From the NCBI GenBank assembly GCA_964435695.1, contig CAYTAQ010000001.1, positions 4,580-68,579 of the forward strand: a stretch of DNA of 64,000 bases, in the 5' to 3' direction. The translations under genes and the position numbers were made by a program. Under the pieces are notes generated by a model that saw nothing but the letters and a program-made list of their open reading frames with translations, was not told where the DNA came from and searched no databases. Below are positions 5,833 through 57,080 of the stretch, piece by piece; positions within the stretch are counted from its first letter, which is position 1, and the number at the start of each line of letters is the position of its first letter. The stretch is from an uncultured Desulfobacterales bacterium. Lineage in GTDB: Bacteria > Desulfobacterota > Desulfobacteria > Desulfobacterales > B30-G6.

Positions 5833-5882
5833 AGTTTTCTCCTTGTTGTGGTCTTTGGCGACGTGTATGGCAAAAAGAGCTC

Positions 5883-5973
5883 GAACCGCGAAGACGCCAA
5901 GATCGCCAAGATATTTTTATTATCGAATCAGAACGATTCGGAAAAAACTTCGCGTCCTTCGCGCCTTAGCGGT
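5883..5973. repeat. word-built palindrome (CGCGAAGACGCCAAG / CTTCGCGTCCTTCGCG theme) between argD and argG
   Basis: The arms are imperfect inverted repeats. An inner hairpin CGAATC-agaac-GATTCG lies at 5924-5940. Confidence 0.75.
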
Positions 5974-6013
5974 TAATTTTTTTTTAGGCCACAAAATCGC
6001 TAAAAACCTCCTG

Positions 6014-8110: not shown

Positions 8111-8193
8111 TTTTAGGTGTTAGGTTTTAAGTTTTAAGTGTTTATAATTACATGCGATACCGTTTCCTAAAACCTAACACTTAAAACCTAAAG
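8111..8193. repeat. word-built palindrome (TTAGGTTTTAAG theme) between hslU and argB
   Basis: TTTTAGGTGTTAGGTTTTAAGTTTTAAGTG faces CCTAAAACCTAACACTTAAAACCTAAAG. Confidence 0.8.
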
Positions 8194-8194
8194 C

Positions 8195-9565
8195 TTATAG
8201 TATATATCGACTCAAATCCTCATCATCCTTGATGCCTTTGAGTTTTTCTTTTACAAAATCGGCGTTGACAACAATCCGCTTTTCTTTTTGATCCGGTGCA
8301 TCGAACAAAATATCTTCCAGCAGGCATTCCATGATCGTATGCAGCCGCCTTGCGCCGATGTTTTCAGTTCTGTTGTTAACTTCCTCTGCCGTTTTCGCGA
8401 TATCCCAAACCGCCTCATCTTCGAATTCTATTTCCACGCCCTCGGTTTTCAGTAACTCGATATACTGCAGCAACAGTGCGTTCTTGGGTTCGGTCAAGAT
8501 GCGGAAGAATTCATCAGAACCCAGCGAGCTGAGTTCCACCCGAATCGGAAATCGACCCTGAAGCTCCGGTATCAGATCAGAAGGCTTGACCGTATGGAAC
8601 GCACCTGAGCCAATAAACAGAATATGGTCTGTTTTGACGGGTCCGTACTTTGTCGTGACGGTAGAGCCTTCAACAATGGGAAGCAAGTCCCGCTGAACAC
8701 CCTCTCGAGAAACATCCGGACCACTCCCTCCGTTCTTTCCCGCAATCTTATCGATTTCATCAAGAAAAATAATACCGGACTGTTCAACTTTTTCGATGGC
8801 AAGATTAACGACCCTGTCCATATCCACCAGGTTTTGGGCTTCCTCGTCGATGAGTATTCCCAAGGCTTCTTTCACTTTCATCTTCCGGCGCTTTTTGTTC
8901 TTGGGCAGAATATTGCCGATCATGTCGCGGATGTTGATACCCATCTCCTCCATGCCGGCATTTGAAAAAATTTCTACCATGGGCATGGAGCGATCCGAGA
9001 TATCCAAGTCAATAAATCTGTCATCCAGCTTTCCACGACGGAGCAGATCCCTCAGCTTCTCACGTGTTGTGGATGACCCACCCTGAACCACATCGCCGCT
9101 CATATCCTCTTGTTCTGTTTGAGCGGGACTTCTGATGTCGGATTTCGGCAGGAGCAGATCAAGCATCCGCTCCTCGGCAATCCGCTCTGCTTTTTTTCTC
9201 ACGGCCGACTGTTCTATCAGCTTGACGCCGTTGACCGTCAACTCCACAAGATCACGAACCATTGATTCGACATCGCGACCGACATAACCCACTTCCGTAT
9301 ACTTGGATGCCTCTACTTTGTTGAAGGGAGAATCGGTCAATTTTGAGAGGCGCCTCGCAATTTCCGTCTTTCCGACACCGGTCGGACCGATCAGAATGAT
9401 GTTTTTCGGTTCAATCTCGTCACGAAATTCCTGCGGCACCTGCTGCCGACGCCACCGGTTCCGTAAGGCAATGGCAACGGATCGTTTGGCCTTGTCCTGA
9501 CCGATGATGTATTTGTCCAGAGCTGCTACAATCTCTGATGGTTTAAGGTCACTCATATCAAACAC
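8195..9565 (-). CDS. hslU: ATP-dependent protease ATPase subunit HslU
   Basis: 456 aa with Walker [15 protein letters not shown] and Walker [11 protein letters not shown]. The C-terminus ends in L, as is typical of HslU. Confidence 0.95.
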
Positions 9566-9640
9566 CTATATCGTGCTGAAGATCATCTCAAAATGAGTTG
9601 ATCCGTGTGTAATTTTCAATTTGCTGCGTGAAACTCTGAT

Positions 9641-9816
9641 AGGGTTCCAGGAGTCGAGGGTCCCAGGGTTCGAGTGAAAAAACAAAAAAACAATCATCAA
9701 AACACAAAATTATTCAATTTCTTTTTCGCCCTTTCGTGATAAATGGGTTCTTCACATCCCATCTATCACATGGTTATTCCTCACTTGAACCCTCGAATCC
9801 TTGAACCCTTGGATCC
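9641..9816. repeat. nested-hairpin element, family A, full copy (between hslV and hslU)
   Basis: Outer arms are AGGGTTCCAGGAGTCGAGGGTCCCAGGGTTCGAGTGAAAA and CTCACTTGAACCCTCGAATCCTTGAACCCTTGGATCC. The interior holds A-rich and ATCATCAAAACACAAA sequence, then TTTCTTTTTCG..CCTTTCGTGATAAATGGGTTCTTCACA..ATCTATCACA. Confidence 0.85.
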
Positions 9817-9850
9817 TTTTTTCAACTGATGTTTAAAAGAACCAACAAAA

Positions 9851-10384
9851 TCAAAATTCCTCTATTGTAATAGAATCATTGGTATAAACACACAGAGAAG
9901 CGGCAATGCGCATGGCTGCTTCCACAATTTGTCTGGCGGTCAAATCCGTGTGCCGCATCAGTGCCGTTGCAGCGGCCTGGGCCCCAACACCGCCGGATCC
10001 GATGCCGATGACGCCTTCATCGGGTTCGATGACATCGCCATTTCCCGATATGAGAAAAATGTTCTCGGCATCTATGGCGATCATGATCGCTTCCAATCGC
10101 CGTAAGTATTTATCGGTTCGCCAATCCCTTGCCAATTCCACTGCGGATCGGGTCAAATTCCCGTTATAGCGTTCCAGTTTGGATTCAAGCTTTTCCGATA
10201 GATGCAGCGCGTCGGCAGTAGCGCCTGCAAACCCGACCATAATTTTATCATGATATATCTTTCTGACTTTTTTTGCCGTGTGTTTGATGACATTATCATT
10301 GAGACTGACCTGTCCATCCCCGGCCAGTGCAACACGGCCTTTGTGTCGCACAGCCAAAATCGTGGTGCCGTGTATGTTGTTCAT
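9851..10384 (-). CDS. hslV: ATP-dependent protease subunit HslV
   Basis: 177 aa. The N-terminus HGTTILAVR carries the catalytic Thr, and GSGG is present. It is paired with hslU. Confidence 0.93.
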
Positions 10385-10397
10385 TGCTTATACCTTT

Positions 10398-10562
10398 GAG
10401 TAACGAGTTGCGAGTTACGGGTTACAGGTTGAATTTATCAAAACCGTCCTATCACAATCATCCTCTTTGTTTCTCATCATAAGGTTCATGTTCCCTCGTT
10501 GCATGCAAATAACAAGGTCTAACCCGGAACACGCAACCCGCAACCCGAAACTCGCAACCGGC
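10398..10562. repeat. word-built palindrome (CGCAACCCG theme) between xerC and hslV
   Basis: The left arm GAGTAACGAGTTGCGAGTTACGGGTTACAGGTT faces the right arm AACCCGGAACACGCAACCCGCAACCCGAAACTCGCAACCGG, with a ~90-nt centre. Confidence 0.8.
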
Positions 10563-19466: not shown

Positions 19467-20732
19467 ATGGGGGATAACACAATCGAGTGCCCAAAATGCG
19501 GACATAAAAACGAGGCATCGGCGGTTGAATGCGATAAATGCGGCGTTACCTTCTCCTTATTCTTTGGAAACACCAAAAAGGACAAGGAAAAAACGCCGGC
19601 GCCTCAGCTTAAAGAACGCAAAGGCGCTGGAATAAAAAATTTAACCCAATGCCCAAAATGCGGTCATACGGTCATTGCGTCCGCTGAAGAATGTATTAAA
19701 TGCGGCATTATTTTTCAAAAATATTTCGAAGTCCAGGAGCGCAAACAGAAAGAGGAACAGGAAAAAGCCGAAGCTGAAAAAAAGGAAAGAAGAGAAAAAG
19801 AAAAAGCCGAAGCTGAAAAAAAGAAGCAGATGCAGAGGGAAAAGGCTGAAAGGGAAAAGGCTGAGGCTGAAAAAAAGAAACAGGAAGAAAAAAATAAGGC
19901 AGAAGCTGAAAAAAAGGAAAGAGAAGAAAAACAAAAAGCCGAGGCTGAAAAAAAGAAACAGGAAGAAAGAGAAAAAGCTGAAACATTGCCCCCCCCCCAG
20001 GAAAAAGAAAAAAAAGAAATCGAAAATGCGGCCCAAAAAGAAATAGAATCCACTGAAAATTTAAAAAAAGAACTGGAAGCATTGAGGACCGAAGCTGAGA
20101 CGCTTAAAAATGAAAAAATCGAAAAAGAAAAGGAAGAAGCCTTAAAAAAAGAAACGGAAGAAAAAGAAAAGGAAGAAGCGCTCCATAAAGAAGCGGCAGA
20201 CCAAAAAAGGATTCAGACGCTGTCTTCAGAGACGGACGCCTTGCGATCCGAAGCTGAGGCTTTAAGAAAGGAAAAGGAAGCACTTGAGAAAGCCGCTGCC
20301 TTAAGAAGAGAGCAGGATGAAAAAGAAAAAGCCGAAGCCTTAAGGAAAGAGAAGCAGGAGCAAGAAAAGGCCGAAGCAATCAGAAAAGAAAGAGAAGACC
20401 AGCTAAAAAGGATGGAAACCATTTTGAAAACACTGGTACCCAAGCCTAATTATGCAGCATTACTCAAAAAGTACGAAGGCAAAGAAATCGGAGTCAACTT
20501 TGATGACCCTGCAGAAATTAGAAGCGCAAGATTAGCCAAAGTGAATGAAGATCATTTCAGCATATTGAATATGGAGAACGAGTTGTTGTACAGCTATTCT
20601 TTCAACAACATCGTCTCGATCGTTGAAGCAATGGATGGCGTGCCGGTTGAAGCATCCGGCCAAAAAGCCACCTATCCGATCGTTGTAAGGGTTCTCCACT
20701 TGATGGTTAAGAAAAAATGGAGCTTCATCTAG
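19467..20732 (+). CDS. double zinc-ribbon protein with a long E/K-repeat helix and a small C-terminal domain
   Basis: There are two CPKCGH-x9-11-C-x2-CG ribbons, then about 220 aa of EKAEAEKKKQEE-type repeats, then a roughly 100-aa non-repetitive C-terminus. The RBS is strong. Confidence 0.7.
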   Translation: MGDNTIECPKCGHKNEASAVECDKCGVTFSLFFGNTKKDKEKTPAPQLKERKGAGIKNLTQCPKCGHTVIASAEECIKCGIIFQKYFEVQERKQKEEQEKAEAEKKERREKEKAEAEKKKQMQREKAEREKAEAEKKKQEEKNKAEAEKKEREEKQKAEAEKKKQEEREKAETLPPPQEKEKKEIENAAQKEIESTENLKKELEALRTEAETLKNEKIEKEKEEALKKETEEKEKEEALHKEAADQKRIQTLSSETDALRSEAEALRKEKEALEKAAALRREQDEKEKAEALRKEKQEQEKAEAIRKEREDQLKRMETILKTLVPKPNYAALLKKYEGKEIGVNFDDPAEIRSARLAKVNEDHFSILNMENELLYSYSFNNIVSIVEAMDGVPVEASGQKATYPIVVRVLHLMVKKKWSFI

Positions 20733-22582: not shown

Positions 22583-24346
22583 ATGAAAATACTTCTGATC
22601 TACCCCTATTTTCTGGATGAGCGGATTCATACATATGACATCAGCGTGCCCCCCATCGGCCTGTATTATGTAGGGGCCGTCCTCAAGGAAAACGGTTATG
22701 ACGTGGACATACTTAACTGGCATGCGATCCATTCATCACCCAAAATAATCAAAGAAACCCTGATCCGAATAAACCCGGATGTAATCGGATTCTCCATTTT
22801 ACATGCCAACCGATTTGGGGGAATCGAAATCGCCGGCATTGCCAAAGCACTGAACCCTGAGGTGAAAATCGTTTTCGGCGGCGTTGGCGCGACGTTTTTA
22901 TGGCGTCATTTTTTAACCCATTTTAACGCCATCGATTACATTGTGCTGGGGGAAGGAGAATACACTTTTTTAGCGCTTGTCAGATGCTTTGAGAAAAAAG
23001 ACGATACCGCCATAAAAAACATCAACGGGATTGCGTTCCGACAGCAAACCGGCCCGTATCAGACAAAACCGGCTGATGTCGTTCAGAATCTGGACCAACT
23101 TCCCATACCGGCAACGTATTTTCAGTATCAGCATGTTTCCTTTACCAGGGGATGCCCCGGGAACTGTACGTTTTGTGGTTCACCCCAGTTCTGGGGGCAT
23201 CGGGTCAGGACGCATTCACCGATCTATTTCGTCGATCAACTGGAATGCCTTTATCACAAAGGTATTCAGTCCTTTTATTTCTCAGACGATACGTTTACAT
23301 TCAAAAAAAAACATGTCCTGGCCATCTGCAAAGAAATCATTGCAAGAGGGCTGAATATCACCTGGGTTGCCATTTCCCGGGTGAACACGGTTGATGATGA
23401 GATCCTTGGATGGATGCGAAAAGCCGGATGTACACAAATCAGCTACGGTATTGAGAGCGGCTCGGAAAAGATCCGGCGCAAATTCAACAAGCGCATTCAA
23501 ACCGAACAGATAAAAAAAGCATTCGACAGCACCCGATCCTACGGCATTTTACCTCGGGCTTATTTCATATACGGAGCCCCCGGCGAATCCCGGGAAACGA
23601 TACAAGAAACCATCCGGCTGATCCATAATATCAAGCCATTGGGTGCGATTTTTTATATACTTGATATTTTTCCAGGAACGAAACTGTATGAGGACTTTAA
23701 GAAAAAGGAAAAGCTTTCAGATGACATATGGTTGAATCGGGTGGAAGATATTATGTATTTTGAGTCGGATCCCGCGCTCTCCAAAGAAGCAATCCTGGAA
23801 TTCGGAAGCCTATTAAGAAGCGATTTTCATAAAAGATTACCTGGATTCATTGAGGATATCGAACTGATTAGCGATAAAACATTTGATCGGTTTCATGCGG
23901 ATTTTTATTCGCGAATGGGGATGACCTTCACCCATGGAGATTATGCAAAAATAGATGCAATTGCGGAAAAAGAGATGATTGCGGAAAAACTTTTTCTAAA
24001 ATCCCTTTCCTATTTTCCCGATATTCGTGCATATCTGGGGCTTGGTATTCTTTATCAAAAACAAAGATCTTTTCAAAAATCCATGGAAATCATTGCCCAG
24101 GGGCTCTCACATTTCTCCGAAGGAATGGATTTGCGTATTTGTCAGGCTATTAATCATATGAATTTGAAAAATTTTGACGCCGCTCTGTCGATTTTTCTCG
24201 AGTATCAAACACTGCCGCATGTGATTTCCTATATCATTGAATGCTACAGGCAAATTGGGGATTTTGAGAACGCGAAAACATTTAGCGATAAAAAAGGATT
24301 CCAGGAGCCAAGAATCCAAGGAGTCGAGTTAAAAACCAAAAAATAA
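22583..24346 (+). CDS. B12-binding-domain radical SAM protein with C-terminal TPR-like region
   Basis: The N-terminal cobalamin-binding-type domain is followed by FTRGCPGNCTFC (CxxxCxxC). The last ~17 codons are derived from a repeat element. Confidence 0.85.
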   Translation: MKILLIYPYFLDERIHTYDISVPPIGLYYVGAVLKENGYDVDILNWHAIHSSPKIIKETLIRINPDVIGFSILHANRFGGIEIAGIAKALNPEVKIVFGGVGATFLWRHFLTHFNAIDYIVLGEGEYTFLALVRCFEKKDDTAIKNINGIAFRQQTGPYQTKPADVVQNLDQLPIPATYFQYQHVSFTRGCPGNCTFCGSPQFWGHRVRTHSPIYFVDQLECLYHKGIQSFYFSDDTFTFKKKHVLAICKEIIARGLNITWVAISRVNTVDDEILGWMRKAGCTQISYGIESGSEKIRRKFNKRIQTEQIKKAFDSTRSYGILPRAYFIYGAPGESRETIQETIRLIHNIKPLGAIFYILDIFPGTKLYEDFKKKEKLSDDIWLNRVEDIMYFESDPALSKEAILEFGSLLRSDFHKRLPGFIEDIELISDKTFDRFHADFYSRMGMTFTHGDYAKIDAIAEKEMIAEKLFLKSLSYFPDIRAYLGLGILYQKQRSFQKSMEIIAQGLSHFSEGMDLRICQAINHMNLKNFDAALSIFLEYQTLPHVISYIIECYRQIGDFENAKTFSDKKGFQEPRIQGVELKTKK

Positions 24347-24415
24347 AACCAATCACGAAAACACGAAATTTTTCTATTTCTTTTTCGTGATTTCGTGATA
24401 AAGGGTTCTTCACAA
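24296..24415. repeat. family A element, copy lacking the right outer arm; its left arm forms the 3' end of the radical SAM ORF
   Basis: GGATTCCAGGAGCCAAGAATCCAAGGAGTCGAGTTAAAAACCAAAAAATAAAACCAATCACGAAAACACGAAA...TTTCGTGATTTCGTGATAAAGGGTTCTTCACA aligns base-for-base with 9645-9770. Confidence 0.85.
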
Positions 24416-25412: not shown

Positions 25413-25490
25413 AGAATCCGGGTCCAAAGGGCCTAGCTTTGGAATAACCCCCAACCCGGCTATACCGGAAAATACAAATGCATTCTTGTA

Positions 25491-25531
25491 AACATCGAAC
25501 GTCGAACATCCAACGTTCGATGTTCGATGTT
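25491..25531. repeat. palindrome (ATCGAACGTCGAACA theme) between convergent genes
   Basis: AACATCGAACGTCGAACAT-cc-AACGTTCGATGTTCGATGTT. It probably acts as a bidirectional terminator hairpin. Confidence 0.75.
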
Positions 25532-28284: not shown

Positions 28285-28328
28285 TGCCGAATCAAACCTT
28301 TCACTTCGCAAACACCCTAATAAAACAT

Positions 28329-28392
28329 AACCACAAAGGCACAAAGCACACAAAGTTTTTTCTTTCTTTTAACCTTTGTGTCTTTGTGGTTG
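28329..28392. repeat. word-built palindrome (CACAAAGG theme) upstream of rfbD
   Basis: AACCACAAAGGCACAAAGCACACAAAG faces CCTTTGTGTCTTTGTGGTT. Confidence 0.8.
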
Positions 28393-28431
28393 CTTTTGCC
28401 ATAAAAAATATTAAAAATTACCATCTTGAAT

Positions 28432-31391: not shown

Positions 31392-33995
31392 TTAAATAAC
31401 AATATTAACAAGTTTTTGTTTAACAACAATAACCTTTTTGATGGGTTTACCGCTGACGAAGTGCAGTGCGCGTTCATCAGAGAGCGCTATGTGTTTGATC
31501 TGATCTTCGGTTGCATCCGCCGATACATTGAACCGGCTTCTGACCTTTCCATTCACCTGCACCACGATCAGCAATTCATCTTTAACGAGGGCATCCTCTC
31601 GATAGGTCGGCCACGTCATGGATATGACCGGCTGCTTATTCCCCATTGCCTCCCACAACTCCTCGGCAAAATGTGGAACGATGGGCGACAGCAACAGGGC
31701 TACCGTTTCCATGGCAAAGCGGATCACCTGATTTCTTTCCGGCATGTCTGCCAGGGTTTCAATCCCGTACAGAACGTTCACCAGCTCCATAATTGCACTG
31801 ATGGCGGTATTAAAATGAAAGCGGTCCTCAATATCCCTGGTGACCCGTTTAATGGTTTCATGGGTTTTTATAAAAAGCGCTTTTATTTCATTTTCCAGTC
31901 CTTCAGCCGATCCGGTATAGGGCCGTACCTCCTTGATATTCGGCATGCAGGCGCCGGCCAGACGCCAAACGCGGTTTAAAAATCGAAACCCTCCCTCAAC
32001 ACCTTGCTCACTCCATTCCAAATCCCTTTCGGGCGGCGCTGCAAAAAGGCAGAACAGCCGGGTTGTGTCGGCACCGTATTTTTCAAGCAATATATTGGGA
32101 TCAATGACATTCTTTTTTGATTTTGACATTTTTTCGACACGCCCGATGCTGACCTCTTTACCGCATTTTGAGCAGTATCGCCTTTCATTTTCTTCGCGAA
32201 CCTCTTCAGGAAAAAGAAAACCGTGGTCCGGGCAGGATGCGGTTTCCTTACAGACCATCCCCTGTGTCAGCAGGCATGTAAAGGGTTCCTTATACTTCAC
32301 AAGCCCCATAGAATTCAACACCCGCGTATAAAACCTGGAATAAAGCAGATGAAGGATGGCGTGCTCAACCCCGCCGATATATTGATCAACAGGCATCCAG
32401 TAATCCACTGCTTTCGGATCAAACATCCCATCCTGAAAATCCGGGCTGCAATACCGTTCAAAATACCAGGAAGATTCCACAAAGGTATCCATGGTATCAG
32501 TCTCCCTGTGCGCATCCGGACGTCCGCATTTTGGGCATGATGTTTTTACAAAAGATTCGAGAACCGGCAGTGGTGATCCCCCTCCCGCCAGCAAATCGGT
32601 GCTCTCGGGTAACACAATCGGCAGGTCTTTCTCAGAAACTGAAACATCACCACAGGCTTTACAATGGACCATGGGGATAGGAGCCCCCCAGTATCGCTGA
32701 CGGGAAATTCCCCAGTCGCGCAATCGAAAGCTGACCGTTTTTTGACCGATTTCGTTTTCTTCAAAGTATAAAGCCATCGCTTCCTGAGCAGCCGTATGCT
32801 TCATGCCGTCAAACTGACCGGAATTGATCATGATGCCCTCGCCGGTGAAAGCCTCGGTCATCCCCTCCGCCGCCAGGTCTTCATTTTCAGGCCTAACAAC
32901 GACGATGATTTCAAGTCCGTACTTTTTTGCAAAGTCGAAATCCCTTTGGTCGTGTGCGGGGACGCTCATAACCGCACCCGTTCCGTATTCCATTAAGGCA
33001 AAGTTGGCTGTATATATCGGCATTTTTCTTCCGCTCATGGGATTAATGCACCATGCACCGATAAAAACACCTTCTTTTTCGTAATTCTCAACCGCCTTTG
33101 CTGATCGATCCTGGAGTGACATGCGTTCGATAAACGCCGCTACATCTGATTCTTCCGCCGTTCCTTGTGACAGCTTAAGAACCAGCGGGTGCTCAGGCGC
33201 CAGGCACATAAATGTCGCTCCGAAAATCGTATCCGGCCGGGTTGTGAAAACGGCGATTTTCTCCTCCGCCGTTCCGTTCTCAATCCAAATAGGAAAACGT
33301 ATTTCAGCGCCCACGCTTTTGCCGATCCAATTCTTTTGCATGGTGATGACCTTCTCGGGCCACCCCGGAAGCCTGTCACAGTAAACCAACAGGTCTTCCG
33401 CATAATCCGTTATACGGAAAAACCATTGCCAGAGTTTTTTCTGCCGCACCGGTTTCCCGCACCGCCAGCACATACCGTCTTCAACCTGCTCATTGGCCAA
33501 TACCGTTTGACAGGGCTCGCACCAGTTAACATATGATTCTTTACGATAAGCCAGCCCCGCTTCAAACATCTTCAGGAACAACCATTGCTCCCATCGATAA
33601 TATTCGGGTTTGCAGGTCGCCAGTTCCCGTTCCCAGTCATATGAAAATCCGATCCGCTTCAATTGAGACCGCATGTTATCGATATTCTGATAGGTCCACG
33701 TTGCCGGATGGCTCTTATTGGCAATGGCCGCATTTTCAGCAGGCATGCCGAATGCGTCCCACCCCATGGGGTGCAGCACATTAAAACCGCACATTCTTTT
33801 GTAACGGGCGACCACATCCCCGATGGTATAATTTCTTACATGTCCCATATGGATATTTCCAGAGGGATAGGGAAACATCTCAAGCAGATAATATTTTTCT
33901 TTCTTTTCATCCACATGAACTGCAAACAGCTTTGATCTCTCCCAAATGTCCTGCCATTTTTTTTCTATGGCCATTGGGTCATATCTCTCTTCCAT
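31392..33995 (-). CDS. leuS: leucine--tRNA ligase
   Basis: [18 protein letters not shown], the HIGH motif ([11 protein letters not shown]) and KMSKS are present. I moved the start to Met59 (33995) because the upstream codons lie in a repeat and the promoter region. Confidence 0.95.
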
Positions 33996-34098
33996 TGAAC
34001 GGGCATACCTCCAAAATTCGGTAGTGTGATGGAACCGCCTCTTTTTCAGGCGGTTTATTTTCATGCCATAATATACTATAAATAGCAAGTTGCTTCTA

Positions 34099-34180
34099 CT
34101 GGATAATAGATGCTGGATGCTGGATACTGAATGCCGGTGTAAACAGAGTATCGAGTATCCAGCATCCAATATCCAGCATC
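34099..34180. repeat. word-built palindrome (CTGGATGCTGG theme) in the leuS/rng divergent region
   Basis: CTGGATAATAGATGCTGGATGCTGGATACTGAATGC faces GAGTATCGAGTATCCAGCATCCAATATCCAGCATC. Confidence 0.8.
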
Positions 34181-34257: not shown

Positions 34258-35724
34258 ATGAGCAGCAAAATCTTAATTAATGCCGTCGACCCCGAAGAGG
34301 TCAGAATTGCGAAAGTAAAAGACAGCAAGCTAGAGGAGTTTCGCATCGACAGCGCGGCAAAAGAAATCACTCACGGCAATATATACAAAGGTATTATCAC
34401 ACGTGTGGAACCAAGCCTTCAAGCAGTGTTCGTTGATTATGGGGCGGAACGCAACGGCTTTCTTCAAAAAAATGAAATTCACAGCGACTATTTTCAAGAA
34501 ACGCCATCAGGAGACACTTCTATCGCGCATGTTGTCAAGAGGGGGCAGGAGGTTCTGGTTCAGATCATCAAAGACCCGATCCTTAAAAAAGGCGCCATGC
34601 TCTCGACATTCATTTCGCTGCCGGGAAGGCATACCGTCCTGTTGCCGGGCTCTAAAACCCGAGGGATCTCACGTAAAATAGAAGATGAAGACGAAAGAGC
34701 TCGTTTAAAAGAGATCATCGGCAAGCTGAGTATCCCCGAAGGGTTCGGCATTATCATTCGGACTGCCGGCCAAAATTGCACCAAAACCTCAGTTTCCAAG
34801 GATTTGAGTTATTTGTTGAGAATCTGGAAAAATATTAAAACAAAAGGGATAAAAGCAACCACGCCGGCAATGCTCCATAAAGAACGGAACCTTGCGCTAA
34901 GATCCATAAGGGATCACTTTACGCCCGACGTCACGGAAATTCTGATTGATGATGAAGAAGTATTTCATGAAATAAAAAACTTTGTTCAAATTATATCCAC
35001 CAAACATGTCAAAATCGTCAAGTATCATAAAAGCGATAAACCGATTTTTTCAAAGTTTCAACTGGAGGACCAGATAGCTTCCATCTTTGAAAGCCGCGTG
35101 ATTTTAAAATCCGGAGGCTCCATCGTCATCCAGCAGACCGAAGCACTTGTGGCGATCGATGTAAATTCCGGGAAATCAACCCATCAGAAAAGCATTGAAC
35201 AGACCGCCCTGACCACCAACATCGAAGCGGCTGAAGAAGTCGCAAGACAACTTCGGTTGCGCGATATGGGGGGCCTTATCGTCGTTGATTTTATCGACAT
35301 GAAAAATGTGAAGCATCGGCTGGAAATTGAACGGGCATTGAAGAAACATGTTAAATCCGATAAAGCCAAAATAAATGTGGGCAAAATTTCCAGGTTCGGT
35401 TTAATGGAAATGTCCCGCCAGAGACTCAGACCTTCGATCGAATTCGGTAGTTTTATAACCTGCAACCATTGCCAGGGAAAAGGGCTCATTGCCTCAACAG
35501 AAACCCTGGGTGTCAGATTTTTAAGAAAACTGCGTTTGGAAACCTTGAAAAGCGATGTGAAAAAGGTTAACGGCATCCTCCCCGTCGAAGTTGCTGACTA
35601 CCTGTTAAACAACAAAAGAAAAGAAATATTGGATCTGGAAGCCAGGCGCCAGCTTTCCATCCGGATTATCGGAGATGGTTCCATGCTTCCCGGCGACAGC
35701 AAAATTACCTATGAATCCGAATAG
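34258..35724 (+). CDS. rng: ribonuclease G/E family (Rng/CafA-like)
   Basis: An S1 domain (GNIYKGIITRVEPSLQAVFVDYG) is followed by an RNase E/G catalytic core (AIDVNSGK, GGLIVVDFIDM). Confidence 0.88.
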   Translation: MSSKILINAVDPEEVRIAKVKDSKLEEFRIDSAAKEITHGNIYKGIITRVEPSLQAVFVDYGAERNGFLQKNEIHSDYFQETPSGDTSIAHVVKRGQEVLVQIIKDPILKKGAMLSTFISLPGRHTVLLPGSKTRGISRKIEDEDERARLKEIIGKLSIPEGFGIIIRTAGQNCTKTSVSKDLSYLLRIWKNIKTKGIKATTPAMLHKERNLALRSIRDHFTPDVTEILIDDEEVFHEIKNFVQIISTKHVKIVKYHKSDKPIFSKFQLEDQIASIFESRVILKSGGSIVIQQTEALVAIDVNSGKSTHQKSIEQTALTTNIEAAEEVARQLRLRDMGGLIVVDFIDMKNVKHRLEIERALKKHVKSDKAKINVGKISRFGLMEMSRQRLRPSIEFGSFITCNHCQGKGLIASTETLGVRFLRKLRLETLKSDVKKVNGILPVEVADYLLNNKRKEILDLEARRQLSIRIIGDGSMLPGDSKITYESE

Positions 35725-43219: not shown

Positions 43220-43482
43220 CAGAGAAGTCAGAAGACGGAACTCATAAATCAGAAGCCAGGAAACAGAAGACAGAACATCCAACATCCAACGCTTAACTCT
43301 CAACGTCCAAGAATGAAGTCGCTTCGCTCCACCATTTTATATCTTTGTATGCCACATGGAAGATCATAAATATAAAATCGATGGCATCCAATCTTGAAAG
43401 TCGAACGTTCGATGTTGGACATTGGACGTTTATCGATTCAGCGCCATATTCAGTATTCTGTCTCCTGTATTCTGTATTCTTG
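43220..43482. repeat. ~260-bp compound palindrome right after topA (CAGAAGAC, ATCCAAC and TATTCTGT words)
   Basis: The left side CAGAAGACGGAA..CAGAAGCCAGGAAACAGAAGACAGAACATCCAACATCCAACG faces the right side GAACGTTCGATGTTGGACATTGGACG...CAGTATTCTGTCTCCTGTATTCTGTATTCTTG. An inner hairpin is CCACCATTTTATAT / ATATAAAATCGATGG. Confidence 0.8.
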
Positions 43483-47261: not shown

Positions 47262-47445
47262 AAGGATTCAAGGGGCCGAGGATTCAAGGATTCAAGTGAA
47301 AAAAACAGTCACCAAAACAAATAATATTGCCATTTCTTTTTCTTGTTTTTTGACCTTTCGTGTTTTGATGGCAAAGGAATTCATTAAATTCCGGCTATCA
47401 CAAACGCTTCACGTGGACCCTAGCCCCCTGGAATCCTTGAATCCT
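47262..47445. repeat. family A element, full copy (between ilvC and cimA)
   Basis: AAGGATTCAAGGGGCCGAGGATTCAAGGATTCAAGTGAAAAAAA ... ATTTCTTTTTC..CCTTTCGTGTTTTGATGG ... CTATCACA ... CTTCACGTGGACCCTAGCCCCCTGGAATCCTTGAATCC. Confidence 0.85.
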
Positions 47446-47468: not shown

Positions 47469-49088
47469 ATGAATGAACCGATCCTGCTGTATGACACAAC
47501 GTTACGCGATGGTACGCAAGGCGAAAACATCAATTTTTCTGCCGATGAAAAGATAAAGATTGCGGAACGTCTCGACGATATCGGTGTTCATTACATTGAA
47601 GGCGGATGGCCGGGCTCAAATCCTAAAGACATTCAATTTTTTGATCTGGCCAGGCGAATTAAATTCAAACAAACAAAAATAACCTCCTTTGGTGCAACCC
47701 GAAGACCGGGCATCGCGCCTGAGGATGATCCCAATTTGCATGCGCTGCTGGATAGCCATACCTCCGTTGTTACCATTTTCGGAAAAAGCTGGGATCTTCA
47801 TGTTGAGCGCATCATGAGCAATACCCTTGAAGAGAATATTAAAATGATCCGGGATTCCGTCGAATATCTCAAGGATCAAAAACGAGAAGTCATCTATGAT
47901 GCCGAGCATTTCTTTGACGGTTACAGGGATAACAAGGACTACGCGTGCCGGACATTGATACCTGCCGTCAAAGGCGGCGCTGAATTCATTGTTCTCTGCG
48001 ACACCAATGGCGGCACCCTTCCCCATGAAATTGAACAGATTATTCAGGAAGTTTCCAGGTGGCTGGAAAAGGAATTGGTTCATGCACCCGCTGATCTGAA
48101 AATCAAGCTGGGTATTCATGCCCACAACGATTGTGGGATGGCTGTGGCCAACTCCATAACCGCTGTGCGTTCAGGTATTTCAATGGTACAGGGAACCATC
48201 AACGGCTATGGTGAACGCTGCGGCAATGCCGATCTTACGACTATTATTCCGGTCATCAACACCAAGTTAAAGGGTATGTGCATCCCTCATGAGAACTTGG
48301 CCCAATTAAGATCATAGTCCAGGTTTGTCAGCGAAACAGCCAATCTTGTTCCCTTAAACTCCCGTCCATTCGTCGGCAAAAGCGCCTTCACCCACAAAGG
48401 AGGTGTTCATGTCAATGCCGTCATGAAACTCCCCGGTGCCTACGAACATATGAATCCGGAAATTGTGGGAAACACCCGTCGGGTCCTGGTATCGGATCTT
48501 TCCGGCAAAAGCAATATCGAGTACAAGGCAGAGGAATTCGGTGTAAAGCTGGACGGAAACGGCCATGACAGTCAGCAAATCGTTACCAAAATCAAAGAAT
48601 TGGAACAGGATGGATATCAATTCGATGTGGCGGACGGATCCTTTAAGATTCTGGCGGAAAAATTGACGGATCAGTTTAAACCTTTATTTGAGCTTGAATC
48701 CTTTAGGGTCACTATCGAAAAGGACAAGGATCAACCCTGCACAGCCCATGCAACCGTTAAAATCCGTGTAGATAATCGAAACGAAATAACGGCGGCAGAA
48801 GGATATGGCCCGGTCAGCGCGCTGGACAATGCCCTTCGCAAGGCGCTCGATAAATTTTATCCGGATCTTGATACCATGCGACTAGTGGATTTTAAAGTTC
48901 GTGTCATTGACGGCCGTGCAGGAACAGCGGCAAAGGTCAGGGTTCTCATCGAATCCCGCGATCAGGATCAGATCTGGAGCACCATCGGTGTGTCCGAAGA
49001 CATCATTGAAGCCAGTTGGCAGGCCCTGGCCGACAGTTTTCAATATAAGCTTGCCCACGAAAAAAAGATCAGGAGTACGGAAGAATGA
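47469..49088 (+). pseudogene. cimA: (R)-citramalate synthase-type (LeuA-family) gene interrupted by one in-frame TAG at 48315-48317
   Basis: ORFs 47469..48317 and 48423..49088 are in the same frame. Reading through the TAG gives ...[53 protein letters not shown]..., a continuous ~539-codon LeuA/CimA-family sequence (LYDTTLRDGTQ, HAHND, HKGG). Confidence 0.8.
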
Positions 49089-49239: not shown

Positions 49240-49393
49240 AAGGATTCGAGGGTTCGAGGGTTCGAGTGAAAAGCTTAAAAGTTACAAAGAATAAAAAGGG
49301 GAGATCGGAGTTGTCGAGAGAATGCTATAAGCGATGATCAAACCCCTGGAAAACAAACACTTGAATCCTGGGGTCCTGGACCCCTCGGACCCT
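49240..49393. repeat. family A outer arms with a different centre (between cimA and leuA)
   Basis: AAGGATTCGAGGGTTCGAGGGTTCGAGTGAAAAG ... CACTTGAATCCTGGGGTCCTGGACCCCTCGGACCC. Confidence 0.8.
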
Positions 49394-53827: not shown

Positions 53828-53953
53828 GAAAAAATAAAAAAACCAATAACGAAAATACGAAATTTGGAAAACACATTATGAACTAGATCTTTTTCGTGTT
53901 TTCGTCCTTTCGTGATTTCGTGATAAAGGGCTTCTTCACATATGATCTATCAC
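53828..53953. repeat. family A inner arms + core copy (upstream of the restriction gene)
   Basis: AAAAAATAAAAAAACCAATAACGAAAATACGAAA ... TTTCGTGTTTTCGTCCTTTCGTGATTTCGTGATAAAGGGCTTCTTCACATATGATCTATCACA. Confidence 0.85.
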
Positions 53954-54119
53954 AAAAACAGAATTAAAGACTCCCAGGCGTATTTTGCCATATTTGAGCT
54001 CCCTGCTCTGCTATTCACCGCCATCATCGGTTTTATCATAGAATTTTTAATTGAATTGCCTTTTATGCTGATTTGTATTCTCGACCATCATTTAGGAAGA
54101 AAAAAGAGGCCCATGAATC

Positions 54120-56855: not shown

Positions 56856-56868
56856 AAAACAGACTTTA

Positions 56869-56937
56869 ATCACGAAAACACGAAACACCAAACACCAAAC
56901 ACTCGACTAAAAATTAAATATTTCGTGTTTTCGTGAT
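56869..56937. repeat. family A inner-arm hairpin (perfect 17-bp inverted repeat), probable terminator of the thioesterase gene
   Basis: ATCACGAAAACACGAAA (56869-85) is the exact reverse complement of TTTCGTGTTTTCGTGAT (56921-37). A T-rich tract follows. Confidence 0.85.
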
Positions 56938-56944
56938 GTTTTTT

Positions 56945-57080
56945 ATTTTTTTCTCGTTCCCACGCTTACATGTTTATAAAAGGTGGCAGAGGCTTCCAGC
57001 CTCTGGAAACCAGCGGCAAGATGCCGCTGCCACCTTGCTTTTTTCTCGTTCCCACGCTCCTGCGTGGGAACGTTTTGCCC
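56945..57080. repeat. composite repeat: duplicated TTTTTTCTCGTTCCCACGCT and a GTTCCCACGC/GCGTGGGAAC hairpin flanking a GGTGGCAG...CTGCCACC hairpin
   Basis: A direct repeat lies at ~56948 and ~57041. Hairpins are GTTCCCACGCtcctGCGTGGGAAC and AGGTGGCAGAGGCTTCCAGCCTCTGG...GCTGCCACCT. A related hairpin, GCTCTCACGCGTGGGAGC, is at 51105-51122. Confidence 0.7.

Follow-up and report, generated by a model that had tools for sequence, protein, structure and literature searches.

The 64,000-nt stretch analysed here, called the window in the following, belongs to contig CAYTAQ010000001.1 of an uncultured Desulfobacterales bacterium and carries the genes hslU (8195-9565) and hslV (9851-10384) on the minus strand, separated by a gap of 285 nt. 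The encoded HslU is identical to a protein of a metagenome-assembled genome at NCBI, and its closest named relative occurs in Desulfonema magnum (78% identity). A nested hairpin element, in which the arms of an outer palindrome enclose an inner one, lies in this gap at 9641-9816. Its arms, linker, loop and core had been described in an initial annotation made from the letters of the window, and all of them are present as read there. The spacer is composed of the following parts:

9566-9850, minus strand: hslV-hslU intercistronic spacer of 285 nt, conserved over its entire length with the orthologous spacer in locus L002
9641-9676, plus strand: left outer arm, consisting of the degenerate octamer words AGGGTTCC AGGAGTCG AGGGTCCC AGGGTTCG and closed by AGTG
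9677-9692, plus strand: A-rich linker, which on the mRNA (minus) strand forms a U-rich tract 3' of the inner hairpin
9693-9740, plus strand: inner hairpin of the CACGAAA-word family, with arms at 9693-9709 and 9724-9740 and a 14-nt loop at 9710-9723
9741-9770, plus strand: asymmetric, lineage-specific core AAATGGGTTCTTCACATCCCATCTATCACA
9781-9816, plus strand: right outer arm TCACTTGAACCCTCGAATCCTTGAACCCTTGGATCC

In its general form the outer palindrome has 3-5 degenerate GGRTYCRA octamers per arm and is closed by GTGA...TCAC, and the words of the inner palindrome are NCACGAAA / TTTCGTGN. The left arm of the hairpin at 9693-9740 has decayed (CG>CA/TA), resulting in G.U pairs on the mRNA strand. 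Since no sigma-70 promoter consensus was found in the spacer and no terminator consensus at 9450-9950, the spacer presumably belongs to the hslVU mRNA; the combination of GC-rich stem, short loop and U-tract expected for an intrinsic terminator was also absent from 9450-9950. Two resemblances of the words were considered and rejected, namely that of CACGAAA to parS (TGTTTCACGTGAAACA), which by eye differs in the half-site, and that of the GGTTCGA words to the T-arm of tRNAs, genes for which are absent from the window.

The comparisons with other sequences show the element at 9641-9816 to be a nested composite of independent dispersed palindromic modules and not a single structured-RNA gene, because its core is lineage-specific while its arms belong to widespread repeat families. 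This reverses the view of the initial annotation, which had seen a conserved core inside variable arms: the arms represent sequence-conserved families across the Desulfobacterales, and the supposedly conserved core was seen only in the window and in its ortholog L002. The exact core pattern gave no match in the GTDB genomes and none in the JGI metagenomes, two collections that contain neither the source genome nor L002 and are thus uninformative regarding its rarity. Pattern matches in comparison to shuffled sequences and a covariance model both support the seven elements that had been reported in the window as far beyond chance. All seven sites are real, but as copies they hold different subsets of modules, and every part is intact only at 9641-9816, the second complete set at 47262-47445 being decayed inside. 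The six other sites are:

24296-24415, plus strand: copy 2, with left outer arm, intact inner hairpin and half of the core; right outer arm absent
47262-47445, plus strand: copy 3 in the ilvC-cimA spacer, with both outer arms; inner hairpin and core decayed
53828-53954, plus strand: copy 4, with inner hairpin (3-4 words per arm) and full core; outer arms absent
56869-56937, convergent spacer: copy 5, inner hairpin only, with perfect 17-nt arms and CACCAAACAC words in the loop
43823-43903: hairpin of outer arms only
49240-49393: hairpin of outer arms only, around unrelated cargo in the cimA-leuA spacer

Hence, outer and inner hairpins are found both apart and nested, and several module combinations occur among the window copies. 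The outer arms measure 26-38 nt, are 71-85% complementary and enclose a short non-coding body; the predicted RNA folds of full copies reach -55 to -68 kcal/mol. The core pattern TTTCGTGATAAA(N0-1)GGG(N0-1)TTCTTCAC has three matches in the window and none in 100 shuffles, and the inner-hairpin pattern likewise has three (at two sites, one of them on both strands) and none in shuffles. When a covariance model trained solely on hairpins of other genomes was run on the window, it recovered 53839-53931 (59 bits), 56862-56944 (54 bits) and 24345-24406 (46 bits), and gave weak matches at 9686-9747 (20 bits) and 47301-47379 (17 bits). The asymmetric core lies on the plus strand in all four core-bearing copies, a number too small for significance.

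Some observations concern the surroundings of these copies. The left outer arm of copy 2 also provides the last 16 codons (KGFQEPRIQGVELKTKK*, 24296-24346) of an open reading frame (ORF) for a B12-binding radical-SAM protein (22583-24346), the predicted C-terminus of which has been remodelled by the repeat insertion. Copy 4 is situated in a divergent spacer upstream of a gene for an AspBHI/Mrr-type restriction endonuclease. In the convergent spacer of copy 5, a GC-rich near-perfect palindrome at 56980-57036 (AAGGTGGCAGAGGCTTCCAGCCTCTGG / CCAGCGGCAAGATGCCGCTGCCACCTT) follows at a distance of 40 nt and is possibly the real bidirectional terminator. Next to copy 3, the cimA-like gene is distributed over two ORFs, 47469-48317 (HMGL-like) and 48423-49088 (HCS_D2 and LeuA_dimer); since the gap between them (48300-48423) is without a repeat element, the split looks like a frameshift that reflects either a pseudogene or an assembly error.

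The inner hairpin is widespread. Scanning the GTDB species representatives with its pattern, for which we estimate about one match by chance, yielded at least 120 loci and included dozens of Desulfobacterales metagenome-assembled genomes (MAGs). Among the matches listed, most belong to Desulfobacterales, "delta proteobacterium" or Thermodesulfobacteriota MAGs, a minority to Planctomycetota (about eight), Acidobacteriota (two) and a few singletons, with up to seven loci per MAG. The canonical form comprises about 76 nt with four octamers per arm, TCACGAAA ACACGAAA nnnnGAAA GCACGAAA – loop – TTTCGTGn TTTCnnnn TTTCGTGC TTTCGTGA. In 52 aligned copies, the sequence of a 17-bp outer and a 7-bp inner stem is almost invariant, and bases one to four of the third word make up a 4x4 internal loop that is variable and for the most part unpaired. 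With 31% GC the inner hairpin remains unchanged in genomes of 59-67% GC. The same AT-rich words were observed in GC-rich (59-67% where measured) Acidobacteriota and Planctomycetota (L030, L034, L037, L041, L042, L044, L095, L101, L111 and L120); some of these carriers are megabase long-read contigs, and L037 has two hairpins in tandem. This occurrence of identical AT-rich words in GC-rich genomes suggests horizontal spread or a common recognizing protein. Where flanks could be called, five of 101 hairpins lie inside a predicted ORF and the others are intergenic. The spacer types correspond to the background, with 10 of 96 hairpins in other genomes being situated in divergent spacers compared to 88 of 625 background spacers.

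About one third of the copies are embedded in a conserved asymmetric unit of approximately 200 nt, TAGAGTCTTAACTGTGAATTCTTTGCATTTTATGrmAAAAA...–hairpin–TTAATTTGTCCTTTTTGGTTCCGGCTTGTCCGGGTTAGG, the right-hand motif of which also trails hairpins made of other words. In the window, CCGGTATAGCCGGGTTGGGG at 25453-25472 (minus strand) matches the right-flank motif GGTTCCGGCTTGTCCGGGTTAGG and adjoins the hairpin 25493-25527; in several other Desulfobacterales loci GGTTCCGGCTTGTCCGGGTTAGG runs directly into a Shine-Dalgarno sequence and start codon. Further small insertions occur in copies of this unit (L009 3230-3350, L057 290-360 and the left flanks of L045, L076 and L079), with CCCAATAAATCGAGATTTACGCTTCCCAA in the right flank or ATCCGCC...GGCGGAT in place of the A-run, and look like additional nested mini-elements. 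A sigma-70 or sigma-54 promoter in the conserved left flank (TTAAYT-N17-TATGAA / TGGCA) was rejected by eye, because of a poor -10 region and misordered sigma-54 elements. Words of the outer arms (GGGTTCGA GGGTCCGA ...) are frequent in these genomes, enclosing different cargo, and the composite of outer and inner hairpin also exists in L080 and L090.

Comparison with relatives shows that the copies were inserted into once-tight junctions, between the stop codon and the ribosome-binding region of the next gene, and that they turn over fast. The initial annotation had attributed the 285-nt separation of hslV and hslU to the element, in agreement with the junction of only 1 nt in more distant relatives (L123 and the contig carrying P0005, HslU 87% identical). 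The gap amounts to about 75 nt on the contig carrying P0004, to 107 nt with a hairpin of CACAAAG words in L001, and to 307 nt in L002, which has the family-A element, as we call the nested hairpin described here, in common with the window. On the other side of hslV, three relatives have a distance to xerC of 2 nt, compared to 32 nt in L001 and 178 nt in the window, where a full hairpin is present. At this place L001 (4409-4441) has only 2-3 direct heptamers (CCCGTAA CTCCTAA CTC), which correspond to the right arm of the 152-nt hairpin of the window and might be either a deletion remnant or the seed of hairpin growth. Between hslU and argB, one hairpin is common to the window and L001, and a different one is found in L002. 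The ilvC-cimA spacer measures 25, 179, 219 or 315 nt with differing contents: it is empty (25 nt) in the closest relative L124, carries an orthologous outer hairpin with a tiny loop in L125, and in L126 shows the CACGAAA hairpin as outer arms enclosing two more hairpins. The ilvN-ilvC and ilvB-ilvN spacers vary likewise among relatives. Indels between orthologs are often word-sized, such as a 16-nt AACACAAAAT duplication in L002 and three words that are absent in L013 compared to L085.

Word hairpins also surround the hslVU genes of Desulfonema magnum. The 237-nt hslV-hslU spacer of this organism (CP061800; L128 9740-10000) contains an unrelated hairpin, the 3' arm of which (GCTAAAATTTCATTTCAGCACTCC) is present three times in tandem. 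It also includes TTAGCACTG-N9-AGAGGTGCTAA, which resembles the heat-shock operator CIRCE (controlling inverted repeat of chaperone expression; TTAGCACTC-N9-GAGTGCTAA).

Once retained, the copies change slowly. Between the window and L002, the hslV-hslU spacer is 93% identical over 282 aligned nt, compared to 64% at fourfold degenerate sites of hslU (whole gene 87%; p 6.5e-15; Jukes-Cantor ratio 0.15). For the outer arms and junction of copy 3, the comparison with L125 gave about 85% versus 44% at fourfold sites of ilvC (p 2.3e-11; ratio 0.17), and the arms of both share idiosyncratic word orders. The hslU-argB hairpin reached 79% versus 66% at hslU fourfold sites between the window and L001 (p 0.03; ratio 0.55). 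In the hslV-hslU spacer, the unique non-repeat flank of about 85 nt is conserved like the element itself (91-93% across window and L002). A recent recombination tract is unlikely, because identity is not raised over the first 150 nt of hslU in this pair. Ten substitutions separate the two hslV-hslU elements; two are situated in stems, both G.U<->A.U exchanges, and none of the ten breaks a pair of the mRNA-strand fold. Judged by these alignments, retained copies appear as sequences under purifying selection, evolving about 6-7 times slower than fourfold sites in two ortholog pairs.

[quoted passage not shown] Copying of the modules would take place in trans, through an enzyme that recognizes the conserved words and has its gene at another place, and new modules would favour landing in or next to existing hairpins, which would produce the nesting. 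Copies inside operons are probably co-transcribed; in the polycistronic mRNA such an element would fold as a hairpin of -60 to -70 kcal/mol and be kept by selection, likeliest because, as a barrier or a site of processing, it would determine how stable and how strongly expressed the cistrons on either side are relative to each other, here hslV and hslU. A more far-reaching version, which we propose only tentatively, sees here an undescribed system of the Desulfobacterales, with sporadic occurrence in Planctomycetota and Acidobacteriota, of mobile palindromes made of 7-8-nt words. Its enzyme would recognize the CACGAAA hairpin and copy modules preferentially into existing hairpins and tight junctions, giving rise to the nested mosaics, and the host might domesticate the insertions as intercistronic RNA by which genes once coupled in translation, hslV and hslU for example, become uncoupled.

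Several results weigh against the invasion and constraint of such palindromes as mRNA hairpins. Regarding mobility, the initial annotation had proposed a MITE-like element without transposase. The multi-copy, dispersed and polymorphic nature of the element (L124 empty, L123 1 nt) fits this proposal, but traces of a mobilizing machinery were not found. Neither a transposase nor a REP-associated tyrosine transposase (RAYT) is encoded among the approximately 40 of 56 window ORFs that were scanned, nor among ten ORFs beside copies in Planctomycetota and Acidobacteriota. No parent insertion sequence (IS) was detected, and the long-range inverted word arrays in the loci examined flank housekeeping genes (Dus, MlaD and dapF) instead of transposases. 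When the empty site of L124 (CGATAG TATAATCAG to the left and ATAATGAGG to the right of the junction) was compared with the filled site of the window, at most a doubtful TAA came into question as target-site duplication in this one comparison. Regarding the RNA, the annotation's alternative of a structured module is consistent with the location of the copies and their slow evolution, but covariation is absent from the 52 aligned copies, which show sequence conservation only; a manual structure was used for this test, since RNAalifold mis-registers repeated words. The counting of G.U pairs had been recommended for inferring the selected RNA strand and gave no sense bias: in 73 inner hairpins from co-directional spacers G.U pairs show no enrichment, stability does not favour the sense over the antisense strand (28 vs 44, p = 0.19), and T-runs beside the hairpins lack a sense-side preference (32 vs 43). 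Hence, the RNA role is drawn from location and constraint, neither covariation nor a bias of strand or T-runs adding to them. The constraint itself comes from just 2-3 ortholog pairs, in which concerted evolution with other copies could be a partial cause, and the depletion of word hairpins in divergent spacers of the window (one of seven, versus 11 of 19 co-directional or convergent ones) is not significant (p = 0.08).

Orientation is of little help here. The unit of about 200 nt has no preference relative to genes (11 vs 9) and no replication-strand bias according to local GC skew (15 vs 16). A near-palindrome folds alike either way, and orientation-independence therefore neither excludes nor supports an RNA role. 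All three intra-operon copies of the window have the stabler fold on the sense strand, which has to be regarded as anecdotal, because the 73 hairpins of other genomes show no such bias.

It is possible, though doubtful, that we are dealing with purely selfish, neutral MITE/REP elements, the apparent conservation of which would stem from their having been acquired recently, from recombination among lineages or from gene conversion to a family consensus. The rapid turnover between close relatives with its empty sites would fit such elements, as would the indifference towards orientation and spacer type, the absence of strand bias in stability and of covariation, one truncated and several decayed copies, and the local clustering of same-family copies. 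They hardly explain why the hslV-hslU spacer including its unique flank shows 91-93% identity versus 64% at fourfold sites beside coding sequence without a recombination tract, or why the arms of copy 3 and L125 keep their word orders at about 85% where fourfold sites are near saturation (44%). The notion of DNA-level arrays, the words of which would be operator or architectural sites for a nucleoid-associated protein or global regulator, as proposed with IHF/HU for Geobacter metallireducens (PMC2700814), appears unlikely, too. Conservation affects the primary sequence of the words and not the pairing, AT-rich words persist in GC-rich genomes, and a function of this kind would not depend on orientation, all of which speaks for such arrays. 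However, the 8-bp period of the words mismatches the helical repeat of DNA, tandem sites do not need strictly palindromic arms, a candidate protein was not identified, and the many unrelated word families with one hairpin architecture in a single genome would call for many proteins or none.

The remaining explanations address parts of the observations. An attenuator or partial terminator that lowers hslU relative to hslV would be in line with UGUUUUUUUGUUUUUU following the inner hairpin on the mRNA strand, with UCCAGUUUUUCGG behind the unrelated hairpin that L001 has there, and with the large hairpin in the corresponding spacer of Desulfonema magnum. It is nevertheless improbable, given the negative scan for consensus terminators, the AU-rich stem, the reversed ilvC-cimA copy with its A-tract before the hairpin, and T-runs that are not commoner on the sense side. 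Growth of hairpins in situ at pre-existing short repeats, through slippage during replication and template switching within a strand and with nothing copied elsewhere, could account for the word-sized indels between orthologs (the duplication in L002; L013 versus L085), for the 2-3 heptamers of L001 where the window has the full 152-nt hairpin, and for the many unrelated word types. The non-palindromic core of about 30 nt common to unlinked window loci, the non-palindromic unit of about 200 nt common to unlinked loci in many genomes, and near-identical CACGAAA words at 120 or more loci across phyla cannot arise independently; slippage therefore accounts for arm length and not for dispersal, making it decidedly improbable as the whole explanation. 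Least of all do we expect a free-standing small RNA gene or a family of cis-regulatory RNAs directed at a particular ligand or target. Very stable folds are predicted, and the 200-nt unit with hairpin, T-runs and conserved flanks could be a mini-gene, but Rfam matches, covariation, a promoter consensus in the hslV-hslU spacer and an association with particular genes are all missing, and single genomes have tens of copies, in either orientation.

The searches in public resources complete this picture. Rfam gave nothing at gathering or permissive thresholds in the window and nothing at gathering thresholds in eight related loci; a match to a described REP, MITE or Rfam family, which the initial annotation had named as a refutation, thus did not turn up, and the best sub-threshold match (23 bits vs a threshold of 100) was to a generic long hairpin. 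Viral contigs contained one match in 2.9 million and plasmids none; there is thus no sign of a phage or plasmid as vehicle. A literature search with the word sequences retrieved no paper containing them from the library that could be searched, and the Desulfonema genome papers are without mention of such repeats.

The kind of element is known, nevertheless, from Geobacter metallireducens, in which sites made of octa- or heptanucleotides in tandem form 24, 21 and 8 pairs on opposite strands at variable distance (classes 1-3; Aklujkar et al. 2009, PMC2700814). One pair is situated between proB and proA, and the arrays were read by the authors as IHF/HU sites for putative global regulator binding (PMC2700814). 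As in the window, 3-5 tandem 7-8-nt words form opposite-strand pairs around variable cargo, in multiple copies and in intergenic positions including those within operons (PMC2700814), and two classes are mixed at some sites. The class 1 consensus GTTGCTYN is close to the GTTGCG-type words of the window hairpin 10407-10558, whereas the three consensuses (GTTGCTYN, TCTCCGTS(Y) and MTYCTGA) differ from the family-A words GGRTYCRA and NCACGAAA. Nesting, insertion polymorphism, spread across genera and purifying selection were not described there, and ISGme8/ISGme9 lie at fixed distance from some Geobacter sites, whereas no IS was seen here. Accordingly, paired word arrays as a kind are known, and the modular CACGAAA/GGRTYCRA family appears to be a new variant.

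The RAYT-associated REP and BIME sequences (PMC2817692) are likewise short and imperfectly palindromic, and are present in many copies within transcribed intergenic spacers, where they form mosaics; their rarity between divergent genes would be matched by the weak, non-significant depletion in the window. In contrast to them, the family-A arms consist of 2-5 tandem octamers over 17-40 nt instead of one 20-40-nt palindrome, start with AGG... or ATCAC... instead of a GTAG/GTGG head, and were not accompanied by a RAYT in the scanned window ORFs or beside the copies examined. REP and BIME sequences stabilize upstream mRNA and bind IHF, gyrase and DNA polymerase I. Bacterial MITEs (PMC10969869, PMC3184786) are similar in length (100-200 nt), terminal inverted repeats, non-coding nature, copy number, insertion polymorphism and insertion at gene ends, with one copy supplying codons. 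Here, however, the terminal repeats are degenerate word arrays that vary between copies, the modules recombine and nest, and neither a parent IS nor, at the one empty/filled comparison, a target-site duplication was visible. Elhai and coworkers reportedly described in 2008 short tandemly repeated repetitive (STRR) heptamer arrays and small dispersed repeats (SDR) in cyanobacteria. In Beggiatoaceae, TAACTGA occurs as direct repeats that immediately precede start codons (PMC4679880). Both systems have intergenic tandem 7-nt words, tiny nested repeats, large and often filamentous hosts and long spacers, but belong to another phylum with other words, and the words studied here form inverted pairs and thereby long hairpins; the likeness of STRR/SDR to family A is one of architecture only.

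Word hairpins have repeatedly separated genes that are adjacent in relatives (hslV/hslU, xerC/hslV and ilvC/cimA), and are thus a major unannotated shaper of operon architecture in ecologically dominant marine sulfate reducers. Quick turnover combined with the slow evolution of retained copies makes them a tractable case of selfish repeats turning into functional RNA or DNA elements. In practical terms they break assemblies, give rise to false ORF ends and mislead the prediction of operons in MAGs. Of most interest are the enzyme behind the cross-phylum CACGAAA hairpin, the occurrence of which at odds with genome GC points to a candidate recognizing protein, and the apparent domestication of insertions in essential operons.

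Besides family A, the window is rich in hairpins of other words. At least 15 intergenic hairpins have arms of tandem 7-8-nt words of many types. Word hairpins cover 1725 of 7768 intergenic nt (about a fifth) and occur in 12 of the 26 spacers of at least 100 nt, namely 9 of 15 co-directional, 2 of 4 convergent and 1 of 7 divergent ones. The following were recorded:

353-415: AGCTGAT hairpin
1330-1409: word hairpin
5878-5980: CGCGAAG hairpin
8111-8197: TTTAGGT hairpin
10407-10558: GTTGCGA hairpin of 152 nt in the xerC-hslV spacer
25493-25527: CGAACAT hairpin
28323-28397: CACAAAG hairpin, a sibling with 41 bits in the CACGAAA model; the hslV-hslU spacer of L001 is filled by this word type
34099-34180: CTGGATG hairpin
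43251-43480: nested hairpin set with AGAAGAC/TCCAACA words

Two AGCTGAT-type hairpins flank dapF (460-1374). The CTGGATG hairpin is located in a divergent spacer directly 5' of the RNase E/G gene (34258-35724), and the left arm extends over some 70 nt at the beginning of the long minus-strand ORF 31392-34169 (TTG start); because of this overlap, the start of that ORF may have been called too far upstream. Finally, the ORF 19467-20732 encodes N-terminal double zinc ribbons and a long K/E-rich region derived from degenerate 39-nt tandem repeats (GAAAAAGAAAAAGCCGAAGCTGAAAAAAAG...), which dominate the direct-repeat output for the window.

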